DNA from: a virus
Taxonomy: Duplodnaviria; Heunggongvirae; Uroviricota; Caudoviricetes
Reading direction: 5' to 3' (one strand)
Length of the DNA stretch: 14,832 nt
Virus record (IMG/VR): IMGVR_UViG_2703719369_000026
Of the stretch, positions 1 through 14,832 are shown piece after piece. The notes below the pieces were generated by a model that was given only the letters and a program-made list of their open reading frames with translations, did not search any database and was not told where the DNA came from. The translations under genes and the position numbers were made by a program. Position 1 is the stretch's first letter; each line of letters begins with the position of its first letter.

Positions 1-1002
1 TTACCCTCTATTGTCAAAAGGGTTCAATTCAACAGCAGCCTCTAAATGACCTGGAGCAAAATGCGCATAACGCATAGTCATTTTTATATCGCTATGCCCC
101 AGTATTTTTTGCAACACAAGAATATTTCCACCCCGCATCATAAAATGACTGGCAAACGTGTGACGTAGCACATGAGTTAATTGCCCATCAGGAAGCTCGA
201 TCTTCGCTCTCTTAATTGCAGCGTCAAAAGCCTCATAACATGGTGAAAATAGCGCTCCTCGTTTTTTAGGAAGCATAGCTTGCAATTGAGGTGAAATCGG
301 TACAGTGCGGTTCTTCTTTCCTTTAGTTTTAACAAATGTGATTCGACCGGGCAGTACTTGAGATTGCTTTAATCCTTCTGCTTCACTCCACCGAGCACCA
401 GTCGCAAGCCCAATACGGACAACAACCCCCAAATCTTTATTCCGTGACTCATCACACGCAATCAGAAGGCGTTCAATCTCATCTACATACAGAAACGCCA
501 GTTCCTTTTCTTCCTCACGAAACTTGCGAATACCAGTCAGGGGGTTTTCACCAGACCACTCCCCAAGGCGCTTCAGTTCGGCAAAAACAGCATGTAGATA
601 TGACTGCTCGCGATTAACGGTTGCTTCACTAAGTTTTTTCTTCCCCTTGGGATTCCATTCTCCTGATAGCCTTCTTTCCCGATAAGTAGCAAACATATTT
701 TTGTCAAACTGAGAAGCAAATGGATCTCCCAGCCTGGAACAAATCGCCTCAAGTTTGACTTTGCGCTCTGCACCAGAGGACAAGGTTTTACCGTACATCT
801 CAAACCAACGAGCAATCAACTCAGAAAGACGAGGACCAGAACCATCTTGAAACTCGTCTCCAACTCTACTATTCATTAAACGGCGCTCATAAGAGAGCGC
901 CTCACTTTTTGTCGCAAACTGTTTACGAATGCGTTTTCCCGATGCCCCGTAGGGATAACATTCACAAAGCCATTTACCTGATGGAATCTTACGAACCGAC
1001 AT
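1..1002 (-). CDS. int: Tyrosine-type site-specific integrase (phage integrase family)
   Basis: Complete 333-aa ORF with the stop at window positions 1-3. The C-terminal catalytic region carries the tyrosine-recombinase signature (HVLRHTFASH ... LGHSDIKMTMRYAHF, i.e. the R/H/R/Y residues). Its ATG lies 5 nt downstream of the preceding gene's stop on the same strand, so it is probably co-transcribed. Confidence 0.9.
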   Translation of the reverse strand: MSVRKIPSGKWLCECYPYGASGKRIRKQFATKSEALSYERRLMNSRVGDEFQDGSGPRLSELIARWFEMYGKTLSSGAERKVKLEAICSRLGDPFASQFDKNMFATYRERRLSGEWNPKGKKKLSEATVNREQSYLHAVFAELKRLGEWSGENPLTGIRKFREEEKELAFLYVDEIERLLIACDESRNKDLGVVVRIGLATGARWSEAEGLKQSQVLPGRITFVKTKGKKNRTVPISPQLQAMLPKKRGALFSPCYEAFDAAIKRAKIELPDGQLTHVLRHTFASHFMMRGGNILVLQKILGHSDIKMTMRYAHFAPGHLEAAVELNPFDNRG

Positions 1003-1007
1003 TTTAG

Positions 1008-1355
1008 TTACTTATCACATAAATCAAATGCAGCCTTAGTGACATCCCCCAGACTCTTTTTTAACCCTGGGGCGGCATCATTATCTAGCCAAAATGGATT
1101 ATTGTTATCTAACGGTAACGCACCAAATGTTTTACCTTTTATTCGAGCCAAACCTGTAAGTGCATATAACTTATTATCGTCAAAATTCATCACATAAGGA
1201 TTACCATCAAGACACTGTAATTGAACCTCATCAGTATTAAATGGCCATACCCCATTGAAACTCTCACGTTCAATAGTTTTAAAAGGCATTGCGACGGCGG
1301 AAAAAGAAAACATAGATAAAAAAGTAACTAATAGTTGAACCTTTTTTACTTTCAT
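1008..1355 (-). CDS. Small secreted/periplasmic protein, possibly DUF2511/YebY-like
   Basis: 115 aa with a typical N-terminal signal peptide (MKVKKVQLLVTFLSMFSFSAVA) and two cysteines (QCLDG ... DLCDK) that could form a disulfide. GAGGT ribosome-binding site about 9 nt upstream. The family assignment is from memory of the YebY pattern and is not verified. Confidence 0.55.
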   Translation of the reverse strand: MKVKKVQLLVTFLSMFSFSAVAMPFKTIERESFNGVWPFNTDEVQLQCLDGNPYVMNFDDNKLYALTGLARIKGKTFGALPLDNNNPFWLDNDAAPGLKKSLGDVTKAAFDLCDK

Positions 1356-1384
1356 ATCATTACCTCAATTTAGCTCAAGTAAGA

Positions 1385-2035
1385 TTACAAATTAAAAAAC
1401 GCCCTAGAAATGACACCGCCTACCAAAACCCCTACGCAGATAAAGAATATTATTTCTTTTGGATAAAGTCGGATTAATTCTGAAGCACGAAGTCGGACTT
1501 CTGGTAAGGTCGAACTCTCTATGTGGCTTGATGCCGATTGTTGCTCTAACCACGACAATGCAGACTGTAACTGAGAACGAGTAAGATCGTTTAAACGTCC
1601 TGTACCGAAATTGATATGGCAATACCGCAGAAGTTTTTGTCGAAGTCCACAGTCTTCACTGTTACGTAGTAATAAACTTACAAGAGCCTTACAGGCATCA
1701 TGATCTTTACATCGCTCAAGCATTGCATGCAGAAAACTCTCCGCTGTTTTATATTGATTTACTGTCATATCATCAATACCAGCTACACCAATCTCCGCAT
1801 GTACTTTTTGCCAAATAATAAACGCTTCAGTATTGCTAGCTTCTGCAATAGCAGCAACCAAGCTATTTAGCTCCTTACGCTGAGCCTTAAGCAAAGGGCG
1901 ATCGTCATCATCATTATTCGAAGGGATTGCGATATTGACGGTATGAGAACCATCATATCGCTCTATCTGAATATTCTTTTCGTGAAAATCACGCCCAGCA
2001 ACGCGATTGTTTGAACCGTTTGAGTTGACGGCCAT
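1385..2035 (-). CDS. Hypothetical tail-anchored membrane protein (single C-terminal TM helix)
   Basis: 216 aa. The soluble N-terminal part includes a poly-Asp stretch (NNDDDDR), and the extreme C-terminus is about 20 hydrophobic residues (IIFFICVGVLVGGVISRAFF). Strong GGGAGGTG ribosome-binding site immediately upstream. The N-terminus repeats a motif found at the C-terminus of the upstream HTH protein. Confidence 0.6.
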   Translation of the reverse strand: MAVNSNGSNNRVAGRDFHEKNIQIERYDGSHTVNIAIPSNNDDDDRPLLKAQRKELNSLVAAIAEASNTEAFIIWQKVHAEIGVAGIDDMTVNQYKTAESFLHAMLERCKDHDACKALVSLLLRNSEDCGLRQKLLRYCHINFGTGRLNDLTRSQLQSALSWLEQQSASSHIESSTLPEVRLRASELIRLYPKEIIFFICVGVLVGGVISRAFFNL

Positions 2036-2050
2036 GTCACCTCCCTACTA

Positions 2051-2455
2051 TCACCTACCCTTAGTTTCGTTATAGTCACGACCAGCGATACGGTTATTAC
2101 CACCAGAAATATTTAACTCACGTCCTGATGGCTGAGTTTCCTTTTCACTGATCGCACCTTTTAAAGCCCCAATCACCGCGTTTTTCACATCTAACGAAGC
2201 TGCTCGAAAGCGAGTAATCAATTCCTGCTCATCATCGTTATAAGTTTCAGGTGAGTGAATTCCCAACACAACATACTGAACATCAAGGCCAAAACGAGAC
2301 AGCGCTGCCAAATACGCAGCATCAGGAAAGCTATCTCCTTTCTCATATCTAAGCTGAGTTAGCTTTTTGACTCCACCAATGTCGCTCATGGCAACTTGAC
2401 TAAGTCCCAATCTTTCCCTTTCCTCACGCAACCGCCGACCAATATCATTTTTCAT
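2051..2455 (-). CDS. XRE-family (Cro/CI-type) helix-turn-helix transcriptional regulator, candidate immunity repressor
   Basis: 134 aa. The N-terminal 65 residues fit the HTH_XRE pattern (IGRRLREERERLGLSQVAMSDIGGVKKLTQLRYEKG). It is first in the leftward operon and transcribed divergently from the rightward early genes, matching the position of P2 C or 186 cI. Confidence 0.8.
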   Translation of the reverse strand: MKNDIGRRLREERERLGLSQVAMSDIGGVKKLTQLRYEKGDSFPDAAYLAALSRFGLDVQYVVLGIHSPETYNDDEQELITRFRAASLDVKNAVIGALKGAISEKETQPSGRELNISGGNNRIAGRDYNETKGR

Positions 2456-2464
2456 ACAAAAACC

Positions 2465-2488
2465 TTGACAGGTATCTTTTTTGATACC
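2465..2488. promoter_or_regulatory. Candidate operator/promoter: TTGACA hexamer followed by a perfect inverted repeat GGTATC-TTTTTT-GATACC
   Basis: Read directly from the sequence: TTGACA at 2465-2470, GGTATC at 2471-2476, a T6 spacer, GATACC at 2483-2488. It lies in the 75-bp divergent region between the XRE repressor gene and the rightward genes. The -10 element and strand assignment are not resolved. Confidence 0.4.
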
Positions 2489-2530
2489 AAAATGATTTCA
2501 CGAGCTATTAGATGATCACAATATACCACT

Positions 2531-2737
2531 ATGAAACAAGTTCTTCACGATACCAGATCACGCATTCCGCGTAACACCGCCACAGGTCCAAGACTGGCAC
2601 TTCGGCTGTCCCTCGAGGAGCGAGCCGTCATTGATGAAATGGCAGCTAAAGAACAACGCTCATCCTCTAACATGGCGCGCATGATCTCCCTTCGCGGCCT
2701 AGAGCTAACCCAGAAAGAACAAAACAAATCTTCCTGA
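2531..2737 (+). CDS. Putative ribbon-helix-helix DNA-binding protein
   Basis: 68 aa with an RHH-like beta-strand plus two helices (RLALRLSLEERAVIDEMAAKEQRSSSNMARMI). No clear Shine-Dalgarno sequence, so it may be leaderless or weakly translated. Confidence 0.4.
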   Translation: MKQVLHDTRSRIPRNTATGPRLALRLSLEERAVIDEMAAKEQRSSSNMARMISLRGLELTQKEQNKSS

Positions 2738-2753
2738 TCAGGAGGCTAGTGGG

Positions 2754-2957
2754 ATGTCAGGTATAACCATCAATATCAATGTGAATGCCCCCTATGTATC
2801 CCTGCAGAAATATGCAGAGATAACAGGTATCCCTCTTAATACATGCAAAAAGATGTTGGCTGACGGTCGAATTATTATCCGCCCCAAACGCGCCAAAATG
2901 GAAAAGCCTGAAGTAAACCTTGTGGCGATGTTAAAAGACGCTTTGGCTAACAGCTAA
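2754..2957 (+). CDS. Putative Cox/Apl/Xis-like small HTH protein (excisionase or early regulator)
   Basis: 67 aa. AGGAGG ribosome-binding site 8 nt upstream. The motif YVSLQKYAEITGIPLNTCKKMLADGRI resembles the excisionase-type HTH. Its position, first clear rightward gene opposite the repressor, matches cox/apl. Confidence 0.5.
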   Translation: MSGITININVNAPYVSLQKYAEITGIPLNTCKKMLADGRIIIRPKRAKMEKPEVNLVAMLKDALANS

Positions 2958-2978
2958 AACAATGAACAGAGCACCATC

Positions 2979-3329
2979 ATGAAAAAAAACGCTAATAATC
3001 CATACTCCAAATTTCGTAATGGCGTAGAACGCCATGTACACCACGTCGCTACCAGTGCATCACGTAGTAACAGTCGCTATAACCTGAACGAGACGCATGC
3101 AACACCGGATGGCCACGCTGTAAAACAAATCGGCGAACATGCCTGGCTGATTGAGAAAGCTGGAATCGTGGTCCACAAATGCCCACGCAATCCGTTTACC
3201 GGGAACCGCATTTTTGCATTGAACTGCGGCGACAATCACTTCGGGCAGGATTTCACATTATACGAAGCACTTCGCACGGTTGATCGTCTGCTTCGCGGGC
3301 AAAGTTTTATTAAACAGGCTGATTTATAA
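2979..3329 (+). CDS. Hypothetical early-region protein
   Basis: 116-aa ORF in the rightward gene chain; no recognisable domain. Confidence 0.45.
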   Translation: MKKNANNPYSKFRNGVERHVHHVATSASRSNSRYNLNETHATPDGHAVKQIGEHAWLIEKAGIVVHKCPRNPFTGNRIFALNCGDNHFGQDFTLYEALRTVDRLLRGQSFIKQADL

Positions 3330-3339
3330 CAGGTGCTTT

Positions 3340-3618
3340 ATGACCAAAGAGCATGCACAAGGTGTATTTATCCGTTTTATTGATTTTCGCGGTGAACTGT
3401 TATTACGCGCATCAGCCATTGACGGAATTGTTCCATCCGAAAAAAACGCAGCTACTTACGTTTATCTGAACGGTACGCGCCTGACTGTGGAGCTTCCGTA
3501 CCAGACCGTACGAGAAATCATTAGCGAAGCTGAAAAGGCTCGTCAGGTTAATGGCGATGAACCCTATATCGAAATTATTTGTATGGATTCAGAAGCTGAA
3601 ATTCAGAAAGCAGATTAA
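3340..3618 (+). CDS. Hypothetical protein
   Basis: 92 aa starting at the ATG at 3340, which has an AGGTG ribosome-binding site. The longer 3280 start in the ORF track would overlap the previous gene by about 50 nt. Confidence 0.5.
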   Translation: MTKEHAQGVFIRFIDFRGELLLRASAIDGIVPSEKNAATYVYLNGTRLTVELPYQTVREIISEAEKARQVNGDEPYIEIICMDSEAEIQKAD

Positions 3619-3629
3619 AGGGCGTTGCG

Positions 3630-3872
3630 ATGGGCAAAGAATATAAAACTCTCATTAACAAAGCACCTGAACGATTTTATTTTCGCTTAAGTGCATCAGG
3701 CGCTCATGCTGAACGTGCAGCCCGTGACTCATTGACCAGGGCAATCCGGAGTTTGTATGACGTTGCTTTTTACGCTGATGATCTGGATGCACTTAACGAA
3801 CTTTCCGAGCTGATCTGTGCCGCAGAATGCGGGGAACACATTGAACCATATAAGCTGGGGAATATCGCATGA
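3630..3872 (+). CDS. Hypothetical protein
   Basis: 80-aa ORF. Its stop overlaps the next start (ATGA at 3869-3872). Confidence 0.5.
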   Translation: MGKEYKTLINKAPERFYFRLSASGAHAERAARDSLTRAIRSLYDVAFYADDLDALNELSELICAAECGEHIEPYKLGNIA

Positions 3873-3982
3873 GTATATTTATCTCATGGCTTGTTCTGAT
3901 TATTTCGGTGGCCTGCGCCATTGGGATTATGCGAATTATTCATTCAGTAAAAAAGATTGAACGCTTTTTCACTGACAAATAA
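3869..3982 (+). CDS. Putative 37-aa single-TM membrane peptide
   Basis: Not in the ORF track because it is under 60 aa. Translated by hand as MSIFISWLVLIISVACAIGIMRIIHSVKKIERFFTDK: a hydrophobic helix followed by a basic tail. Its start is coupled to the upstream stop (ATGA). Confidence 0.35.
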   Translation: MSIFISWLVLIISVACAIGIMRIIHSVKKIERFFTDK

Positions 3983-4074
3983 CAGCTTAAACAGAACACC
4001 AGATTAAACCCGAAAACCTGAAAACTATCCGCATTCGCGGAGGTATTCGCACACGTAAATAACGGAGATATAAA

Positions 4075-4491
4075 ATGAACGCAAAAGAAAAAAATATTAT
4101 CAATACATTAAAAATAGTGTCAGCAGAGCAAGACAAGCTGTCCAGGGCAGCCCAGAAAGATAATCAACATATGGCAGCGCTTTACGCACTGACCATCGCA
4201 ATAGCCACCCCTGAAGCAGCCAAAGTTATTGAGGAACAGAGCAAAGAAATCGACACTCTTAAAACACAGTCAACAGTTGCAGCCATGAATCCGTCCAGCA
4301 TTGGACGCTGCATTTATATTCTTGGTTCAGCAATGATGCTGCAATACACCATTATTGCCGAACTGCACGGCAAATACCTGATAACGCCTTACCACACAAA
4401 AGAGTCAGAGCTTCTGACAAATCTCCGCCTGATAGAACGCTCTCAAGCTGTATTCATTGATGACGCGCAACGTGCCGTATTTAACGCATAG
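4075..4491 (+). CDS. Hypothetical protein
   Basis: 138 aa with a GGAG ribosome-binding site; no recognisable domain. Confidence 0.5.
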   Translation: MNAKEKNIINTLKIVSAEQDKLSRAAQKDNQHMAALYALTIAIATPEAAKVIEEQSKEIDTLKTQSTVAAMNPSSIGRCIYILGSAMMLQYTIIAELHGKYLITPYHTKESELLTNLRLIERSQAVFIDDAQRAVFNA

Positions 4492-4514
4492 GGTTACTGG
4501 ACAAAGGGGGCGCA

Positions 4515-4718
4515 ATGGCAATTAAGCATTTTCCCGTCGTTCGCTTTACCTCCAGAGGGCGCGAATACGAGGTCGACGAACGCCTGATTACCACTATCGA
4601 CAAACATCGTTCGGAAAAGGATGCACACCACATCTACCTCACTGACGGCACTTACTTCTGCGCCACCAACGTGGCGCGAGTAAATCTTATCCGACAGGTA
4701 CAGGAGCCACGCAGATGA
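4515..4718 (+). CDS. Hypothetical small protein
   Basis: 67 aa with a strong AAAGGGGG ribosome-binding site. First gene of a three-gene translationally coupled chain. Confidence 0.5.
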   Translation: MAIKHFPVVRFTSRGREYEVDERLITTIDKHRSEKDAHHIYLTDGTYFCATNVARVNLIRQVQEPRR

Positions 4719-4981
4719 CCATTCTGGACTACATCGCTACTCATCCGGGGTGTAGCGGCGGAGAGATCGCCGCAGCACTGAATACCCCAACCACAGCCAT
4801 TAATGCTGAGTTACGCCGACTTTGGCGCGGCGGCTTAGTCATCAGAACAAACCGCAGCACAGGTGGTCGCGCTCGCAAAACAGGAGGCCAGGCTTCTTAC
4901 CACGTAAACCCGATGCCGTTCGGGTGTAGCAATCCACTTACTCACATGTTTAACCAGCTACTGAAGGAAGCCAGAGCATGA
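4715..4981 (+). CDS. Putative winged-helix DNA-binding protein
   Basis: 88 aa. AGGAG ribosome-binding site and ATGA overlap with the upstream gene. The N-terminal segment (DYIATHPGCSGGEIAAALNTPTTAINAELRRLWRGGLV) resembles a wHTH. Confidence 0.5.
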   Translation: MTILDYIATHPGCSGGEIAAALNTPTTAINAELRRLWRGGLVIRTNRSTGGRARKTGGQASYHVNPMPFGCSNPLTHMFNQLLKEARA

Positions 4982-5277
4982 GCACCATCAACCACCAGAA
5001 GCTACGCGAACTGGCATTTGCCCTGCAACGAATGGCAACGCCTCAAAAATTACTGGCATTTCGCGCAATGCTCTCGCCGTCTGCTGTGCTGGCACTGCTG
5101 GATCAGCTGGAGCACGCCAGAACCACGGCTCCTGCCATTCGCCTCACGCTCCATCATGAAATCGCTGATTTCTGCGCAACGCTGGGGGCACCTGGCGAAC
5201 CGGAAACGCCGGAAGCAATGCAGCAAGAGCTGCTGCAACGCATCGATAACGTTTTTGATTTTTTTCTGAACCAGTAA
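4978..5277 (+). CDS. Hypothetical protein
   Basis: 99-aa, helix-rich ORF with an ATGA overlap to the upstream gene. Confidence 0.5.
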   Translation: MSTINHQKLRELAFALQRMATPQKLLAFRAMLSPSAVLALLDQLEHARTTAPAIRLTLHHEIADFCATLGAPGEPETPEAMQQELLQRIDNVFDFFLNQ

Positions 5278-5399
5278 GAAACCAGAACATGCACACACAA
5301 AAAAACCGCTTGCCATGCCGCAATCGGTCAGGTTACATTTCCGCTGCACCTCATAAAACGGGTGCCGGGATTCTCAACCCGATACAGAGCAAAGCGCAT

Positions 5400-5420
5400 A
5401 ACCGCGCTAGCGGTTTTTTT
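5400..5420 (+). terminator. Candidate intrinsic terminator (hairpin plus T-run)
   Basis: AACCGC-GCTA-GCGGTT stem-loop at 5400-5415 followed by TTTTTTT through 5420. It lies about 125 nt downstream of the 4978-5277 gene. Confidence 0.45.
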
Positions 5421-5599
5421 GTGCGTACTGTATTGCCACGTCTTTTTCGCGTCAGAATTATGGCGGGGCGTACGGGGCCGACTTCGGTCGGGCCGGATTC
5501 TTTGCTCTCCGGTGTTGAGAACCCTGTACGTCTCGCCACCCCGAGATTCTCAACTCTGGATGGTGAGTTATTTCTATCACCGAGCAAAGAGGCCACACC

Positions 5600-5830
5600 A
5601 TGGCAGACCGCAAACAGCACCGCGCTATCGCGGAGCGTCGTCACATCCAGACTGAAATCAACCGCAGACTTTCCCGCGCATCACGCGTCGCGCAAATCAT
5701 GCACATCAATATGCTGCATGAGCGCAGCCACGCACTATCAAACATTTATTCCGCCTCTGTTTTCAGCTATCTGGCGGATGATCTGCACGAGTTTCAACAG
5801 CTCATCCAGCAGCAAAACAAACTCCATTAA
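5600..5830 (+). CDS. Hypothetical small basic protein
   Basis: 76 aa with an AAAGAGG ribosome-binding site 7 nt upstream. It is preferred over the overlapping 205-aa ORF at 5289..5906, which crosses the hairpin structures. Confidence 0.4.
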   Translation: MADRKQHRAIAERRHIQTEINRRLSRASRVAQIMHINMLHERSHALSNIYSASVFSYLADDLHEFQQLIQQQNKLH

Positions 5831-5902
5831 TTCCTGTTCCGGGCCTTTCCTGCACCTTGCGGCGGGAGGCCTTCGCACATCTGTAACAAGAGGATTGCCG
5901 CA

Positions 5903-6268
5903 ATGATTCTCGCCAACGACTTTCTTGAATACCTGCTCAACACAGAACGTGATCTTGCCGCTCGCGTGCGTGATCGTTATGACATGTACCTGAAATCCCT
6001 GCCTGTACCGCAGCTCGCTGACGGAAAGATTGTTATTGATGGTCGCTACATGATTGACAGCCACGAGGGAAATTACAGGCTTTACCGCATTGAAGGTGGC
6101 ACCCCGTCCGTTATTGGCATTTACCAGCGCCCATCCTCTGCAATCGTCGATGTGATTGCCGACAGCATCCGCATCACACATCGCCATGCCGACACAGAAG
6201 ACACCGTGCTGGAAATTCAGCGGCTGGCTACAGCCTGCCGCGACACCCTGAATGGCATGACGAAGTAA
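5903..6268 (+). CDS. Hypothetical protein immediately upstream of the replication initiator
   Basis: 121 aa with an AGAGGA ribosome-binding site. It sits where P2 carries gene B, but no similarity to B was recognised. Confidence 0.5.
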   Translation: MILANDFLEYLLNTERDLAARVRDRYDMYLKSLPVPQLADGKIVIDGRYMIDSHEGNYRLYRIEGGTPSVIGIYQRPSSAIVDVIADSIRITHRHADTEDTVLEIQRLATACRDTLNGMTK

Positions 6269-6274
6269 ATCACT

Positions 6275-9097
6275 ATGACGGCAGAGTACATCAGGGACTG
6301 GCAACAACCGCGCCACGCAGTGGGGCGTGAAGGAACGGGGATCCCCGCTCCTGAATCCGCGCTTTCCTCCTGGCTGGATGCCTACCGGGTAGAGAACGAG
6401 CGCCGCCAGGAAATGGCTGATGCGGCGTTCTCCGCAACGCCGCTGGGCAACCTGATTAATAAAAGCCTGGACGCACAGGAAAAACAGGACAAAACCATCA
6501 CACTGGCAGGAGACGCCAGAAAACAGGCACGCGGTGCGGTGGATGAAGCCATGGCCTCGCTGCGCCTGCTGCCGTCCTATCTGCGCGATCCGCTTATTCG
6601 CCACCTCTCCTTCCTGCGCAAAAAACAGGAAGCCGATCGTCAGAAAGGCAAAAAGAGCTGGCAGGCTGAACGCTACGCGCGCGGAAACCTGCGCAAAATA
6701 TTCGAACGTCTGGAGCGCACCGATCACCGCTGGCTGACACAGGGTTATCGCTCCCTTGCCGGACGCGAACGCCTGGACGATTTGCTTTACCTGCCGCAGC
6801 TCAACAAACACCAGATACAGACGCTGGCCACCATGACGGCGGCGATGTTCAGCAGCACCTTCGAAAAACTCTGCGATGGCTTTGGCGCGACCGATGGCGA
6901 ACTGACCATGGATGTAACGCTGAAGGCGTATCAGATGCTGGCCCGCATGGCGTTACACCTGCACGCCATGCCTCCACATTATGACGCACTGACAACAGAC
7001 AAAGACCGGAGGAACGAACCGGACACGGAGCTGCTGCCGGGCGCAATCCTTCGCCTGACCTGTGCGGAATGGTGGAAACGCAAACTGTGGCTGTTACGTT
7101 GCGAGTGGAGAGAAGAACAACTCCGCGCCGCCTGTCTGGTTTCCAGAAAAACATCGCCCTATCTGAGCCAGGACGCGTTAAGCGAGTTTCGCGCACAGCG
7201 CGAGAAAACACGCGATTTCCTGAAAAGTTTCATGCTGGAAAACGAAGACGGGTTCACGATTGATCTCGAGACAGTGTATTACGCGGGAGTAAGTAACCCG
7301 GTTCACCGTAAGGCAGAAATGATGGCCACCATGAAGGGGCTGGAACTTCTGGCCGAAGCCCGTGGCGACAAAGCGGTGTTTCTGACTGTCACCTGCCCGT
7401 CAAAATACCACGCTACAACAGAGAACGGTCATCCGAATCCCAAATGGAACGGGGCCACCATGCGCGACTCCAGCGATTACCTGGTTAACACGTTTTTTGC
7501 GGCGGTCCGCAAGAAACTGAACCGCGACGGCCTGCGCTGGTATGGCATCCGCACGGTGGAGCCTCACCATGACGGCACCGTGCACTGGCATATGATGGTC
7601 TTTGCTCATCCGGAAGAAATCGACACCATTGTGTCCCACACCCGCGATATTGCCATTCAGGAAGATCGTCACGAGCTGGGCGATGATATTACTCCGCGCT
7701 TTAAGGCGGAGTATGTCGACGGCTCAAAAGGCACGCCAACCAGCTACATCGCCACCTACATCGGAAAAAACCTGGACAGCCGCGCCGTGGATGGCATCGA
7801 CCCGAAAACAGGCAAACCACGCGTTGACCACGAAACCGGAAAATCAATGACCGAGAGCGTGGAACGCGCCATTGGCTGGGCGCGCCTTCACCGGGTCCGC
7901 CAGTTCCAGTTCTTTGGCATCCCCTCCCGTCAGGTGTGGCGTGAACTGCGTCGCCTTGCCAGCCAGATGGCACGCAACCCGGAAGGCCCGCAACGGCTGA
8001 AGGATGACGCAATGGATGCGGTTCTTGCTGCCGCTGATGCCGGATGTTTTACCACCTACATTGAGAAACAGGGAGGCGTACTTGTTCCACGCAAGGACTA
8101 CCTGATTCGCACCGCCTACGACCTCGCAGATGAGCTGAACGATTACGGCGAACAGAGCGTACAGATTTACGGGATCTGGTCACCACTCATCGGGGAATCC
8201 TCCCGTGTGTGCACGCACCCGGATAACTGGAAGCTGGTAAGACGTAAACCGGGAGTAGAAGACAGCGCCCGCGAAAATGGTTTTGACCTTCAGGGCGGCC
8301 CTGCCGCCCCTTGGACTCGTGGCAATAACTGTCCCCGTGTACAGGAAACGGACAACAACGGGACAGAACAGCCGGAAGAACGGCCAGCACCGTGGCCGCA
8401 GCTTCCTGACGGCGTTGACGTGAACGAATGGATGCGCTCACTGAAACGGCACGAACGCCGGGCGCTGATGCGTTCGCTTCGTGACAAACAGGCAAAAAAC
8501 AGCAGTGATGAAATGCAGAGCTGGACACAGAGCCGCAAACAGCAGCGGCCTTTGCCTGATAACCACGAATTACTCGCTAAAGAATGGCGGGAGTCTGCTG
8601 AATCTCTCGGCCTGCATATCGGTGAACAACAGATGCAGCACCTGTTACGGGGCGGCAGTCTGTACGTTGACGGCAGCATCATTGCACCGCAGGGATTTGA
8701 AATTGTACGCAAACCGGATACCCGCCCGGACAGCCGAATCACGCAGCTCTGGCAGCGCCTGAGCCGTAATCATGGCGTAAGCAGCACGGAGATCCGCCAT
8801 AACCCGGTCGCCAGCTATCTGGCACAGCTGGGGGCATCAGACCCTGAAGCCGCCGCACGCCTGGCATCCACACTTCAGCAGGACCAGAACACCATGAAAA
8901 CACCCGTTACCGTGCTTTCTGACATGCTGCGCGCCATCCGCGACGCAGAGCACGCACAGAGAATCAGTGAAACCACTGAACGCGCCAGCCGCAAAGCAGA
9001 CCTGCTGCGGGGTGGCCTGACCAGTGGAAACAAAAAACAGACAGAAACGGGACTCACAAATCCCGTAAATGAGCAAAAAACGCGCCGCGATATATGA
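6275..9097 (+). CDS. Rolling-circle replication initiator/endonuclease, phiX174/P2 gpA superfamily
   Basis: 940 aa. HUH motif VHWHMMVF encoded at about 7580-7603, and a paired-tyrosine active site SYIATYIGK (YxxxY) with the tyrosine codons at 7745-7747 and 7757-7759. It is about 180 aa longer at the C-terminus than the roughly 760-aa P2 A protein. Confidence 0.88.
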   Translation: MTAEYIRDWQQPRHAVGREGTGIPAPESALSSWLDAYRVENERRQEMADAAFSATPLGNLINKSLDAQEKQDKTITLAGDARKQARGAVDEAMASLRLLPSYLRDPLIRHLSFLRKKQEADRQKGKKSWQAERYARGNLRKIFERLERTDHRWLTQGYRSLAGRERLDDLLYLPQLNKHQIQTLATMTAAMFSSTFEKLCDGFGATDGELTMDVTLKAYQMLARMALHLHAMPPHYDALTTDKDRRNEPDTELLPGAILRLTCAEWWKRKLWLLRCEWREEQLRAACLVSRKTSPYLSQDALSEFRAQREKTRDFLKSFMLENEDGFTIDLETVYYAGVSNPVHRKAEMMATMKGLELLAEARGDKAVFLTVTCPSKYHATTENGHPNPKWNGATMRDSSDYLVNTFFAAVRKKLNRDGLRWYGIRTVEPHHDGTVHWHMMVFAHPEEIDTIVSHTRDIAIQEDRHELGDDITPRFKAEYVDGSKGTPTSYIATYIGKNLDSRAVDGIDPKTGKPRVDHETGKSMTESVERAIGWARLHRVRQFQFFGIPSRQVWRELRRLASQMARNPEGPQRLKDDAMDAVLAAADAGCFTTYIEKQGGVLVPRKDYLIRTAYDLADELNDYGEQSVQIYGIWSPLIGESSRVCTHPDNWKLVRRKPGVEDSARENGFDLQGGPAAPWTRGNNCPRVQETDNNGTEQPEERPAPWPQLPDGVDVNEWMRSLKRHERRALMRSLRDKQAKNSSDEMQSWTQSRKQQRPLPDNHELLAKEWRESAESLGLHIGEQQMQHLLRGGSLYVDGSIIAPQGFEIVRKPDTRPDSRITQLWQRLSRNHGVSSTEIRHNPVASYLAQLGASDPEAAARLASTLQQDQNTMKTPVTVLSDMLRAIRDAEHAQRISETTERASRKADLLRGGLTSGNKKQTETGLTNPVNEQKTRRDI

Positions 9098-9173
9098 AGC
9101 GCGCACAAAACAGGCAAAAGCGGGATTTAAAAATCCTGTAACCGATTAATTAATCAACATAAGGAAAAGCGAC

Positions 9174-10133
9174 ATGAAAATTTGTATCGACGACGGCTCC
9201 ACCAACATCAAGCTGGCATGGACTGAGAACGGCGAACGCCGCAACGCCATCAGCCCGAACAGCTTCAAGTCGGAATGGTCTGCGCCATTCGGTGGCACGC
9301 AGCCCGCGAACTACATGCTTGATGGCGTGCGCTATGGTTTTGATCCGGTCAGCGATCGCTTTGTCCAGACGACCGACACGCAATACCAGTACAGCGATGT
9401 GAATGTAATTGCCATTCATCACGCGCTGGTCAAATCAGGCATCACACCACAGGAAGTGGATGTGGTTGTCACCCTGCCACTGAGCGAGTATTTCGATACA
9501 AACGCACAGCCGGACATGGCCAACATCAACCGCAAAAAAGCGAACGTCATGCGCCCGGTGGAGTACCAGAACGGCGAAGCATTCACTATCCGTAACGTAC
9601 GGGTTATGCCTGAATCCATTCCTGCTGGCTTTAAGGCACTGGCTGACATGAGTCCGTTTGAATCCCTGCTGATTGTGGATTTGGGCGGAACCACGCTGGA
9701 TGTGGCAAAGGTTCAGGGGCAACTGGCAGGTATCAGCCAGGTGTTTTGCGATCCACACGTAGGCGTTTCTCTGATGGCCGATGCCGTACTGTCGGTGATG
9801 GCCACTAACGGTATGCGCACCAGTCACCACATCGCCAATACCATTATCGAACATCGCCATGATGAAGCCTGGCTGCGCCAGCACATCCACAATGACGCGC
9901 ATTACGCCAGCCTGATGGCGGTTATTCGTGAAAAGGAAGAAACACTGAAACAACGCGTGATCCGCGCGCTGGCGGTTTTTTCGGGTTACGGGCGGGTGAT
10001 GGTTGTCGGTGGCGGGGCGGAGATTGTGGCAACCGCTATCCGCGAAGCCTGCGGAGTTAATGCGACTTTCATCGCGGACGGGGTGCCACAGTTTGCTCTG
10101 GTTAATGGGTTGTACGCAATGAACAAGGAGTAA
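9174..10133 (+). CDS. parM: ParM/StbA actin-like segregation ATPase (type II partition)
   Basis: 319 aa, alignable by eye along its full length to R1 ParM. Actin-fold motifs are present: IDDGSTNIKL (phosphate-1), VDLGGTTLD (phosphate-2) and VVGGGAE. AAGGA ribosome-binding site. Confidence 0.92.
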   Translation: MKICIDDGSTNIKLAWTENGERRNAISPNSFKSEWSAPFGGTQPANYMLDGVRYGFDPVSDRFVQTTDTQYQYSDVNVIAIHHALVKSGITPQEVDVVVTLPLSEYFDTNAQPDMANINRKKANVMRPVEYQNGEAFTIRNVRVMPESIPAGFKALADMSPFESLLIVDLGGTTLDVAKVQGQLAGISQVFCDPHVGVSLMADAVLSVMATNGMRTSHHIANTIIEHRHDEAWLRQHIHNDAHYASLMAVIREKEETLKQRVIRALAVFSGYGRVMVVGGGAEIVATAIREACGVNATFIADGVPQFALVNGLYAMNKE

Positions 10134-10137
10134 ACCA

Positions 10138-10452
10138 ATGACGACACCAACCAGACGGATAAGTTTCTATCTGAAGCCCGCCGCCGTCAAGAGTGAACAG
10201 GAGGCGTGCAATTACCTCGATAGCCTGCCAGCCTCCGAACGCAGCCGCGCGCAACGCGCGGCCTTTCTGGCTGGGCTAGCACTCATAAAGCGCAACCCAG
10301 CATTTGCCTACTGGATGGCCGAATGGCCAGAGGACAACCTCCCCTTCAATACCGTTAGCATCAAGGAAACATACCAGGCTAATCAGCCTAGCGGAGTTGA
10401 ATGCAATTTTTATAAAATAAAAAAGAATATTCAGACCTTATTCCCAGAATAA
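10138..10452 (+). CDS. parR: ParR/StbB centromere-binding adaptor
   Basis: 104 aa starting 4 nt after the parM stop. The N-terminal RHH region (ISFYLKPAAV ... LDSLPASERSRAQRAAFLAGLAL) matches the R1 ParR pattern. Confidence 0.85.
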   Translation: MTTPTRRISFYLKPAAVKSEQEACNYLDSLPASERSRAQRAAFLAGLALIKRNPAFAYWMAEWPEDNLPFNTVSIKETYQANQPSGVECNFYKIKKNIQTLFPE

Positions 10453-10471
10453 TCTGATAATTGTATGTGAA

Positions 10472-10926
<455 letters not shown>

Positions 10927-10979
10927 TAAAGTTATGTTCCTGACGTATGTATTCGTCCCGCAGGAATCAACCAACTGAT

Positions 10980-11369
10980 TTATCTGAATTTATCATGCCC
11001 CTCAACTCTGATTTTATTCATCTTGTTTACCGAATCGGGTATATCTGATAACTGTCCCGATAAGACTTTTTGTTTCGCCAGCATAATCTCTTTTTCAAGC
11101 TTTTGAAGTTCTTTTATATAGTCATTCTTCCCTTCTTCATCAGCCGGTGAAATGCTCTCAGGAAGACGCTTCATTGACTCATCTACAGCATCATCCATTC
11201 TGTCAAGAGCTTCAAGAAGCTCCTTTTTATCCATTGATGACTGAAGTACACTCATATTCCTTGCAAGAACTTGCATGCTTTCATCAAGTTCTTCTGCCAC
11301 TGTAATCCCCCCACACAAAAAATATAATGCCATACCACAGCTGATTATAACTTTATTGCTTTTCTGCAT
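10980..11369 (-). CDS. cybC: Cytochrome b562 family protein (periplasmic, four-helix-bundle haem protein)
   Basis: 129 aa with a signal peptide. A Met near the mature N-terminus (AEELDESMQVL) and a C-terminal His (EGHDKFR) parallel the Met and His haem ligands of E. coli cytochrome b562. AAGGAG ribosome-binding site. Lies 43 nt downstream of the catalase-peroxidase gene. Confidence 0.75.
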   Translation of the reverse strand: MQKSNKVIISCGMALYFLCGGITVAEELDESMQVLARNMSVLQSSMDKKELLEALDRMDDAVDESMKRLPESISPADEEGKNDYIKELQKLEKEIMLAKQKVLSGQLSDIPDSVNKMNKIRVEGHDKFR

Positions 11370-11381
11370 AATTTCTCCTTC

Positions 11382-11404
11382 ATGAGGGAGGTGCCCTCCC
11401 TCAT
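11382..11404 (-). other. Intercistronic stem-loop between the catalase-peroxidase and cytochrome b562 genes
   Basis: Perfect 9-10 bp inverted repeat (A)TGAGGGAGG-tgc-CCTCCCTCA(T). It is not followed by a U-run on the coding (minus) strand, so it is unlikely to be an efficient intrinsic terminator. Confidence 0.5.
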
Positions 11405-11412
11405 CAGTTTTA

Positions 11413-13638
<2,226 letters not shown>

Positions 13639-13799
13639 TTAAGGGAAATTCGCATGTTGTATACAAAAGTCAACTTTATTGATGCAACAGGATATACCTA
13701 TTGCTGGGATAGATACTACAGACAAAAAATACTAAGGGGTTCCAAGCCGCAACTGACGATGCCGTTGAGTTCTGCGCAGACCTGAATATTCCCTTCTTT

Positions 13800-13985
13800 G
13801 TGGATGTCAGAAACAAAAAGCTGGTCTTCTGGTTTGTACGTGTTGATGACGAAGGGTATCCTGAAATAGCCCGCTGCACGGAGCGGGAGTTTGCGACCAT
13901 TCTTGCCGGTATCAGCGCCGGCGGCATGTACTGCCCGGAGTGTGGCACGGTTCACTGGCCGGACGGAGTTCCCCCGCCCTTCTGA
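13800..13985 (+). CDS. Hypothetical small ORF, possibly an IS91-family accessory ORF remnant
   Basis: 61 aa from a GTG start. The open frame extends upstream to 13713 without an ATG. Its stop overlaps the ATG of the IS91-like transposase (TGATG). Confidence 0.3.
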   Translation: MDVRNKKLVFWFVRVDDEGYPEIARCTEREFATILAGISAGGMYCPECGTVHWPDGVPPPF

Positions 13986-14420
13986 TGCTTCCCCGTTTTG
14001 CCGACATTTTTCAGCAGGGAAACCGCTGGCTTAACTGGCTGGAGAAACAACCGGAAGGTTCAGTGCGTCCGGTAGTCATTGAGTCTGTGACAAAAATCAT
14101 GGCCTGCGGGACCACGCTGATGGGGTACACACAGTGGTGCTGTTCATCTCCGGACTGCAGCCACATAAAAAAGGTCTGCTTCCGGTGTAAAAGTCGCTCC
14201 TGCCCGCACTGCGGAGTGAAGGCTGGCGCACAGTGGATACAGTATCTGCTGAGTCTGGTTCCCGACTGTCCGTGGCAGCATATTGTGTTCACACTTCCCT
14301 GCCAGTACTGGTCCCTGGTGTTCCACAACCGGTGGTTACTGGCAGAGATGAGCCGCATTGCTGCGGATGTGATACAGGAAATCTGCCGCCAGGCAGATGT
14401 GCGACTACGAACTCGAACCA
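13985..14420 (+). pseudogene. IS91-family (rolling-circle HUH-Y2) transposase, N-terminal fragment only
   Basis: N-terminal zinc-binding region typical of IS91 TnpA (VRPVVIESVTKIMACGT ... CSHIKKVCFRCKSRSCPHCG). The frame then gives way to IS3-family orfB sequence near 14420, so the catalytic HUH/Y2 domain is absent. Confidence 0.7.
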
Positions 14421-14424
14421 CAAT

Positions 14425-14832
14425 CTGCCAGTTGCGCCAAATCTGCTGAACCAGACGTTCGCTCCTGCAGCACCAAATCAGGTCTGGGTGGCGGACCTGA
14501 CGTATGTTGCCACACAGGAGGGATGGTTGTACCTCGCTGGCATCAAAGATGTTTATACGTGCGAAATTGTCGGCTACGCCATGGGAGAGCGCATGACAAA
14601 AGAGCTGACAGGTAAAGCCCTGTTTATGGCGCTCAGGAGCCAGCGCCCACCTGCCGGGCTAATCCACCACTCTGATCGAGGTTCACAGTACTGCGCATAC
14701 GATTACCGGGTCATACAGGAGCAGTTTGGTCTGAAAACATCAATGTCGCGTAAAGGTAACTGTTACGACAACGCTCCGATGGAAAGCTTCTGGGGAACGC
14801 TGAAAAATGAGAGCCTGAGCCACTATCGTTTT
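14425..14832 (+). pseudogene. IS3-family transposase orfB internal fragment, continuing beyond the window
   Basis: Hand translation in frame 1 gives NQVWVADLTYVATQEGWLYLAGIKDVY ... LIHHSDRGSQYCAYDY ... CYDNAPMESFWGTLKNE, a DDE integrase core. There is no upstream orfA or inverted repeat. The sequence differs from the IS629-like copy at 10484-10926. Confidence 0.8.

Follow-up and report, generated by a model that had tools for sequence, protein, structure and literature searches.

We examined why a tyrosine integrase, a rolling-circle replication initiator (gpA) and an actin-type partition pair (parM-parR) should lie together within positions 1-10452 of the virus record IMGVR_UViG_2703719369_000026, read here as a window of 14,832 nucleotides (nt), i.e., the whole stretch of DNA that was analysed. 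A preliminary description of this DNA, made from its letters, had proposed an element that both integrates and is maintained or segregated as an episome (a phage-plasmid, a satellite or an integrative plasmid) or, alternatively, a large plasmid that had captured the early region of a prophage. Positions 1-10484 were found to belong to Sp13/CP-933T, a defective P2-like prophage of Escherichia coli O157:H7 whose early (left) arm they form, and Sp13 was found to be a member of the P88-like phages (Peduoviridae, genus Xuanwuvirus). Taken as a whole, the explanation that we favour with good confidence is that of the Sp13 left arm, ending at a deletion associated with an insertion sequence (IS), and carrying a parM-parR pair that is owned by the phage lineage and would serve in segregation. 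The features upon which the argument depends are listed by position, strand and identity, with protein lengths in amino acids (aa) and E for the expectation value of a match.

1-1002, minus strand: tyrosine integrase, 333 aa (Pfam Int_N, E 5e-32; Phage_integrase, E 2.5e-22).
6275-9097, plus strand: gpA, HUH-type nicking initiator of P2-type rolling-circle replication, 940 aa (Pfam Phage_GPA, E 2.4e-131).
8296-8336, plus strand: candidate replication origin (ori) within gene A; predicted nick near 8313 (by homology to P2 only).
9031-9068 (within the 3' end of A) and 9104-9141 (intergenic), plus strand: candidate centromere (parC), two 38-nt direct repeats of 79% identity found by a repeat search.
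9174-10133, plus strand: ParM, actin-like segregation ATPase, 319 aa (Pfam StbA_N, E 1.8e-82; ParM C-terminal domain, E 3.5e-69).
10138-10452, plus strand: ParR, predicted centromere-binding adaptor, 104 aa (Pfam Plasmid_stab_B, E 7.7e-29).
10485-10924, minus strand: IS3-family (IS629-type) transposase fragment that truncates the prophage (blastn against the chromosomal and pO157 IS copies).

Megablast resolved the window into a mosaic of a chromosomal part, a run of 44 N and a part from plasmid pO157. Bases 1-10695 matched the chromosomes of many E. coli O157:H7 strains at 100% identity (e.g., EC4115 from 2499422), and bases 10740-14832 were 100% identical to pO157, including the pO157 of strain 319. 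The run of N at 10696-10739 was the only one in the window; hence 1-10452 is truly contiguous, and the integrase, the initiator gpA and an intact parM-parR pair, each assigned to its family far beyond chance, do share one uninterrupted segment, as the preliminary description had stated.

On the EC4115 chromosome, yecA lies to one side of the segment and the leuZ-cysT-glyW tRNA cluster to the other. The integrase was 100% identical to EC4115 chromosome positions 2499422-2500423, and the gene sizes of 1002, 348, 651 and 405 bp equal those of ECs2617-2620 of strain Sakai, the integrase being ECs2617. Sp13 of Sakai and CP-933T of EDL933 (O-island 76) are the same element as window positions 1-10695, at the same yecA/leuZ site, and the two have been equated in a published comparison (PMC3338595); the length of Sp13 in Sakai is given as 21,120 bp (PMC7430833). 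The preliminary description had suggested a search beyond position 1 for att sites or a tRNA, and in EC4115 the element was found flanked by a 121-bp direct repeat with one mismatch that holds the terminator region and the 3' ~55 nt of tRNA-Leu(UAA) (leuZ). Of its two copies, attL is 107-227 bp beyond window position 1, on the left, and the second abuts leuZ; such a duplication is a classic mark of an element that has integrated at the 3' end of a tRNA gene. A tRNA search of the window returned none, leuZ being outside it, at the far end of the prophage.

The IS3-family (IS629-type) element, with an adjacent deletion, took out everything from just after parR to the tail-fibre genes. In EC4115, parR is followed by the truncated IS, a tail-fibre-assembly gene, an acetyltransferase moron, tail sheath, tube and tape-measure genes (the last of them frameshifted) and a gpD fragment cut by IS30. 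The preliminary description had reported no structural genes in 1-10452, and portal, terminase, capsid, lysis and tail genes were indeed all absent from the window, because the IS-associated deletion and the 44-N gap lead directly into the katP DNA of pO157; the structural genes that it proposed to seek in the full replicon are represented on the reference chromosome only by this partial tail block after the IS. The P2 cos 19-mer was tried as a sign of a retained packaging site and proved uninformative, as it lacks conservation even in intact P88-like genomes.

Much of the behaviour of Sp13 was established by Asadulghani et al. (2009, PMC2669165), who found it to be P2-like and without most morphogenetic genes. 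Circular Sp13 was detectable in uninduced cells; upon mitomycin C treatment the circles increased ~30-fold, the DNA was amplified and early genes were induced, and some Sp13 DNA was packaged, yet no transfer to K-12 was seen. Their paper pointed out the P4 epsilon-like gene of Sp13, never mentioned the partition genes, and noted that P2 is not SOS-inducible (PMC2669165). Sp13 integrates, excises, circularises and replicates. The proposal of an element with both an integrated and an episomal existence was in this respect borne out, by the att duplication for the former and the replicating circle for the latter, and the extrachromosomal form that was to be looked for had already been published (PMC2669165); its assignment to a phage-plasmid, satellite or integrative plasmid type did not hold. 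The integrase and A genes were not isolated remnants in an ordinary conjugative plasmid backbone, the element being a known defective prophage of a known genus, and nothing in the sequence pointed to a non-functional ParMR. Both Sp13 and its annotation were already known, and it is no new kind of mobile element.

The description of the segment as a P2-like lysogeny and replication module was well founded. Its gene order follows P2 (int-C|cox...A), its gpA is homologous, and it was 93-96% identical at the nucleotide level over 3027-10484 to phages 520873, P88, phiSM and vB_EcoM-569R5; the intact relatives at this level also include P884B11, and all are Peduoviridae, most of them assigned to Xuanwuvirus. 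In these relatives the order is int-C|cox...A-parM-parR-variable cargo-portal-terminase-scaffold-capsid-lysis-tail, and wherever a lineage member was examined, parMR stood after A and ahead of the portal gene. P88, phiSM, 520873 and vB_EcoM-569R5, with ParM proteins 95-99% identical to that of the window, are complete phages whose genomes, 34-37 kb long, include the portal, terminase, capsid, lysis and tail genes, a block that Sp13 lacks; some relatives differ from Sp13 in integrase, att site and ParR allele. Both P88 and phiSM give infectious phage, P88 being mitomycin-inducible, and phiSM forming plaques and lysogenising K-12 at an attB (PMC6456863); in that paper the partition gene appears only as a "fitness" item in a table. 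Sp13 is a deletion derivative of this complete temperate myovirus lineage and does not fit the integrative plasmid among the types first proposed.

The replication gene is of the P2 kind. The gpA of the window was 30% identical to P2 gpA over 747 aa (E 2e-79) and retained an HxH metal motif (H437-W-H439); its pair of catalytic tyrosines, Y491 and Y495, fall opposite Y450 and Y454 of the P2 protein. It differs in length, 940 aa vs 761 aa for P2. As in P2, the ori would lie inside gene A, since the region ~8300-8334 was recognisably similar to the part of P2 gene A in which the nick is annotated (position 29892 of NC_001895), with CCT(C/T)GGA(G/C)TC...CAATAACTGT common to both. No theta-type replicon, Rep/RepA/Rep_3-type family or copy-control gene was found in any open reading frame (ORF) of 1-10452, and gpA is the sole initiator. 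After A, P2 carries orf91-tin-old and is without partition genes, whereas the window element has parM-parR at that place.

ParM aligned end to end with the solved structures of plasmid R1 ParM (E 7e-93) and kept the phosphate-1 (DDGSTNIK), phosphate-2 (DLGGTTLD) and adenosine (GGGAE) motifs. ParR gave a weak match to the pB171 StbB structure 2jd3 (E 0.012). Among the phage relatives its N-terminal strand RRISFYLKP and C-terminal tail NI(Q/R)xLFPE were conserved and the linker was hypervariable, and R..FYL.P, R..A..AG.AL and the C-terminal N...F were invariant across phage, plasmid and integrative and conjugative element (ICE) homologues; the predicted architecture is the expected one of a DNA-binding (ribbon-helix-helix) head, a flexible linker and a ParM-binding tail. 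Pairwise against six relatives, the ratio of nonsynonymous to synonymous substitution rates (dN/dS) was 0.03-0.17 for parM, 0.14-0.28 for parR and 0.11-0.15 for gene A, and parM was the most conserved gene of the region. The parM-parR pair is conserved and selectively maintained, and was not grafted from a plasmid onto this particular element. ParR occurs in two allelic classes (compared among the window and relatives L003 and L005-L008), with ~72% DNA identity over the first 63% of the gene and an unalignable linker, and both classes adjoin parM genes of 95-98% identity. The classes did not co-vary with the candidate centromere sites; these and the DNA-reading strand were invariant.

The candidate centromere consists of the two 38-nt repeats, each of which holds a CGGG-N10-CC(C/T)G palindrome, the pair being 73 bp apart. 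Both repeats were conserved in all close relatives, and in prophages of Plesiomonas and Hafnia palindromes of like form were paired 72-74 bp apart at the corresponding position upstream of parM. By comparison, the plasmid-type locus L016 showed the classic array of eight or more 11-bp iterons upstream of parM. A centromere reduced to two sites would be what chiefly distinguishes the structure of this system from that of R1. A simple scan of the plus strand between A and parM found no sigma-70-like promoter and no terminator, which fits co-transcription of parMR with the replication gene.

The distribution of the pair also follows the phage. The block formed by the 3' end of A, parM and parR was present in 1304 of the 5426 complete E. 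coli genomes (24%), at 1442 chromosomal loci vs 2 plasmid loci, the hosts including ST131 and O157. Among 50,697 phage records, ParM homologues occurred only in the P88-like group (14 records) and in phage D6, which we take to be a P1-like phage-plasmid; the D6 homologue, in a 91-kb genome, was 48% identical and is annotated as a StbA-type plasmid stability/partition protein. Of at least 5000 plasmid records with a ParM homologue, 6 were at or above 95% identity and 4994 were below 60% (maximum ~52%). More distant relatives of ParM were taken from a protein search with contig look-ups. Homologues stood after gpA in complete P2-like prophages of Plesiomonas shigelloides (62% identity), Hafnia (62%), Serratia (58%) and Enterobacter ludwigii (54%), directly adjoining it in Plesiomonas and Serratia and separated from it by one or two ORFs in Hafnia and Enterobacter; downstream there followed variable cargo (HicAB, KAP NTPase) and then portal, terminase and capsid genes. 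At 49-50% identity the context was of another kind, ICE-like in Dickeya (TraG/TraU) and that of an integrated F-like plasmid in Mangrovibacter. In a neighbour-joining tree of 107 ParM homologues, the window ParM and the four context-verified prophage copies fell within one clade of 16, with R1 ParM outside; the tree is a rough one, in which two short-contig sequences of 54-57% identity lie outside the clade, and strict monophyly is not claimed. The gpA-parMR association is old and specific, and is not a recent plasmid graft.

Three of the six plasmid records with a ParM at or above 95% identity, and one record labelled as another genus, contained DNA of this family. The PLSDB "plasmid" pNJS001-2 (L018, NZ_CP114132.1, 438 kb) carries yecR-ftnA-yecH-tyrP-yecA followed by Sp13 at 100% identity; because it carries yecA, tyrP and ftnA, it is a mislabelled O157-type chromosome fragment. 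The KPC-bearing IncC conjugative plasmid pC-Ec2-KPC (L017, NZ_MK439959.1) holds at 14001-34646 a truncated P88-like prophage bounded by IS26, in which int and the repressor are missing but gpA, parMR and the portal, terminase, capsid, lysis and baseplate genes are present; here a plasmid has genuinely captured this phage type. The circular 34,461-bp "plasmid" pZ1323PEC0009-2 (L005, NZ_CP148288.1), the one such circular record in PLSDB, holds an entire P88-like genome, in which int and attP are intact and cox, A, parMR and all structural genes are present. It is most simply seen as an excised, replicating phage caught by the assembly, or else it represents a rare episomal state; its integrase allele was chromosomal in 308 genomes and on a plasmid in none. 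A scan of the genome collection with ParM gave three close loci only, in E. albertii, in Salmonella and in a record labelled "Vagococcus sp. WN89Y" (L007, NZ_JBQPOM010000071.1), a Gram-positive genus, whose contig encoded a 97% identical ParM with P88-like early genes and is probably contamination or mislabelling.

What might the pair do for such a phage? We give about even chances to a mechanism of the kind in which ParMR segregates or positions excised circles that gpA has replicated. The early operon would be switched on after infection, or after derepression and excision, and gpA would nick the ori within its own gene and produce monomeric circles, which is the product of P2-type replication. 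ParR would load on the two palindromic sites just upstream of parM, and ParM filaments would push sister circles apart, such that both daughter cells keep a copy before integration or reintegration, or such that replicating DNA is well placed in the cell. The pay-off could be less loss after spontaneous excision, less abortive lysogeny and a higher yield of lysogens or phage DNA, or it could be better-organised replication. For Sp13 itself, we infer that its circle may be segregated as an episome by ParMR.

Two precedents make segregation or positioning a reasonable mechanism. The closest functional analogue is srpMRC of the SXT/R391 ICEs, where an integrating element that yields a rolling-circle, relaxase-replicated circle is stabilised by a ParMRC-like system, and where srpMRC lowers the loss of excised R391 (PMC4489591). 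Its carrier is conjugative and not a phage, and its function was demonstrated, whereas that of the window pair is read from sequence; also, srpM and srpR are called distantly related to R1 ParMR (PMC4489591), whereas the window ParM is a close R1-type homologue. The other is AlpAC of the Corynebacterium glutamicum prophage CGP3, again an integrated prophage with an actin-like protein and a DNA-binding adaptor, both of which are switched on soon after excision and without which the circular phage DNA does not replicate efficiently (PMC4446434); it differs in that the host is Gram-positive, the phage is of another type, and the actin-like protein comes from a family that is not related by sequence. 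With ParMRC of R1 itself the window system shares a full-length ParM match with the ATPase motifs, the ParR Pfam family and the order centromere (here a candidate)-parM-parR. It departs from R1 in that its ParM is ~46-52% identical to plasmid ParMs, two 38-nt repeats take the place of an array of some ten 11-bp iterons, the scan detected no separate promoter for parM, and the replicon is an integrating rolling-circle phage and not a theta plasmid. A more tentative proposal, which we would rate somewhat below an even chance, is that gpA-parMR is a distinct, phage-adapted type II partition lineage whose minimal centromere has two sites, that one branch of the Peduoviridae has coupled it to rolling-circle replication, and that it makes these phages, Sp13 included, facultative episomes.

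Several points weigh against a segregation role. Full-text literature searches covering P2-like phages, Peduoviridae, Xuanwuvirus, P88 and phage-plasmids yielded no functional study of ParMR from a phage of the P2 type. The lytic growth of such phages finishes with lysis of the cell, where a segregation machine has no obvious use, and the early operon is off under repression, so that ParMR may go unmade in stable lysogens unless a promoter of its own was missed. The candidate centromere has two sites only, an array of 11-bp iterons being absent upstream of parM, and CGGG-N10-CCCG as a stand-alone motif was not significant (8 matches in the window vs 4.4 expected); the weight for parC as a candidate therefore lies only in the longer repeat, its position and the conserved spacing. 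Lastly, the 100% identity among O157 strains reflects clonal descent and not selection on Sp13 itself.

Among other explanations, the one that would keep P88-like elements, Sp13 included, stably as low-copy episomes through gpA and ParMR, with integration as the alternative state, draws upon the circles of uninduced cells (PMC2669165), the complete P88-like genome that pZ1323PEC0009-2 represents as a circle, and the standing of D6 as the only other phage with a ParM homologue. We think it improbable, given 1442 chromosomal loci to 2 on plasmids, an integrase gene with att duplications flanking the element, and the plasmid-free record of the pZ1323PEC0009-2 integrase allele; moreover, phiSM lysogens arise via integration at attB (PMC6456863), and the ORFs hold no theta-type replicon or copy-control gene, hence no plasmid replicon to stand beside gpA. 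A P4-like satellite was rejected: replication is by gpA, no match to the alpha, sid, delta or psu families was found, and only the epsilon-like gene and the C4/cI-type RNA (described below) resemble P4. That pO157, or a cointegrate, captured the early region of the prophage, with a real link between 1-10452 and katP, is equally hard to credit. The two parts of the window share an IS629-type fragment in the same orientation, which makes an IS-mediated fusion possible, the right-hand part is entirely pO157 DNA, and pC-Ec2-KPC is a true precedent; against this, the parts are joined only through the 44 N, which lie inside this repeated IS and stand for 383 bp found in both references. When compared by blastn with the chromosomal and pO157 IS copies, the left phage/IS junction (10484/10485) was the chromosome-specific truncation point of the IS and the right IS/unique junction (10924/10925) was the pO157-specific one. 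No locus covering at least 80% of the window was found in the 5426 complete E. coli genomes or in any PLSDB plasmid record, the chromosome-pO157 join occurred in no complete E. coli genome, and the one 438-kb "plasmid" with a 100% match is the chromosome fragment noted above. The joining of Sp13 DNA to pO157 DNA is thus most likely a scaffold join made across a repeated IS, as we infer from these junctions, and a real IS-mediated cointegrate of chromosome and pO157 is improbable to the same degree as capture; either way, 1-10452 is untouched by the question, its coordinates being wholly inside the chromosomal part.

A different view takes ParMR as passenger cargo at the variable locus that follows A in P2, acting in lysogenic conversion or exclusion (e.g., through partition incompatibility against plasmids or rival phages), or persisting as a decaying remnant. 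The pair does occupy the place of P2 orf91, at the start of the tin/old region, and the genes just downstream in relatives are variable and defence-like (HicAB, KAP NTPase, differing hypothetical proteins), whereas parMR itself, unlike these cargo genes, was retained in every lineage member examined and follows gpA down to 54% ParM identity. The two ParR classes beside a near-invariant parM would suit the diversification typical of incompatibility determinants; however, the DNA-reading strand of ParR and the candidate sites are the same in both classes, and cross-reaction with plasmid centromeres is unlikely because ParM is at most 52% identical to plasmid ParMs and ParR is more distant still. 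The low dN/dS of 0.03-0.17 excludes decay, and PADLOC, run on 10 proteins (ParMR and the small ORFs), gave no defence match, and the defence-system reading of ParMR and small ORFs was rejected. We regard the cargo explanation as unlikely, if a little less so than a stable episome or plasmid capture, and retain segregation or positioning of the excised circle as the preferred role for ParMR.

To the right of the prophage, the window contained the following.

10751-10867: Rfam ALIL pseudoknot, inside the IS fragment.
10925-14832, no strand assigned: pO157-type DNA, outside the prophage (100% identity to pO157; Pfam).
10980-11369, minus strand: cytochrome b562 (Pfam; pO157 part).
11413-13623, minus strand: katP (Pfam; pO157 part).
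13940-14449, plus strand: IS91 family transposase zinc-finger fragment, right of katP (Pfam).
14382-14832, plus strand: IS3-family orfB (integrase-core) fragment, running off the end of the window (six-frame translation of the window end).

Here katP is bracketed on both sides by IS remnants, with the IS91 and IS3-family fragments to its right and the IS629-type fragment to its left.

Between the integrase and gene A, the remaining features of the prophage arm were as follows.

1008-1355, minus strand: DUF2511 protein, cargo of low guanine-plus-cytosine (GC) content (Pfam DUF2511; PHROG).
1385-2035, minus strand: 216-aa protein of PHROG 5825 with a weak membrane-protein match (PHROG).
2051-2455, minus strand: helix-turn-helix immunity repressor at the position of P2 C (Pfam HTH_31 below cut-off, 24.1 vs 27 bits; PHROG transcriptional repressor families).
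2531-2737, plus strand: Arc-like repressor, 68 aa, at the start of the early operon (PHROG 3431, E 4e-27).
2754-2957, plus strand: Cox-like excisionase/repressor (PHROG 575, E 1e-27).
2979-5277, plus strand: early-operon genes, namely DUF4761, orf92, DUF4754, orf138, orf67, a MarR-like winged helix-turn-helix protein and orf99 (Pfam, PHROG).
5346-5420, plus strand: isrK-like small RNA (Rfam RF01394, 63 bits; gathering cut-off 50).
5456-5543, plus strand: C4-type antisense RNA (Rfam RF01695, 78.5 bits; gathering cut-off 45).
5600-5830, plus strand: P4 epsilon-like derepression (antirepressor) protein (Pfam Derepression, 31.9 bits vs cut-off 27).

The pair of genes at 1008-2035 matched PHROG 2950 and PHROG 5825, had a GC content of 0.38-0.40 and no PADLOC defence-model match, and was present in phage 520873 and absent from relatives L004 and L005 (pZ1323PEC0009-2); these genes look like moron cargo. 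The repressor at 2051-2455 was also below threshold for Pfam HTH_3 and HTH_19, and its place agrees with the P2 map. RefSeq has a 45-aa hypothetical gene on the minus strand at 2545-2682, opposite the Arc-like ORF; the plus-strand gene at 2531-2737 is probably the real one, because of its PHROG 3431 match. The early genes at 2979-5277 gave dN/dS values of 0.05-0.4 against relatives. RefSeq is without annotation over 5289-5906, where both small RNAs lie directly upstream of the epsilon-like gene. The epsilon-like frame had a dN/dS of 0.18-0.34, and an overlapping 205-aa ORF, called in some phage records, is doubtful because its value was ~1. The region 5289-5906 looks like a P4 cI-epsilon or P1 c4-ant immunity cassette set inside a P2-like phage, and it may be related to the mitomycin inducibility of Sp13. 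A LexA box was tried as the source of that inducibility and rejected: matches to CTGT-N8-ACAG were at chance level, and none was near the cassette.

The combination of integrase, rolling-circle initiator and ParMR in this record is a textbook cryptic prophage of O157:H7, whose right half was hidden by an IS-associated deletion and an assembly gap. What is new in it is modest, and is the question of why a common, integrating P2-like family keeps an R1-type actin segregation system, with a seemingly minimal centromere, close behind its rolling-circle initiator. If these phages are facultative episomes, then their circles, whether excised or freshly injected, would be actively segregated, with less prophage loss and less abortive lysogeny, and this would help to explain their presence in about a quarter of E. 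coli genomes. If ParMR stabilises the excised circle, the principle known from SXT/R391, that integrated elements need plasmid-like maintenance, would extend to the tailed phages, and would help to explain how prophages that are defective and yet still excise, such as Sp13, persist.

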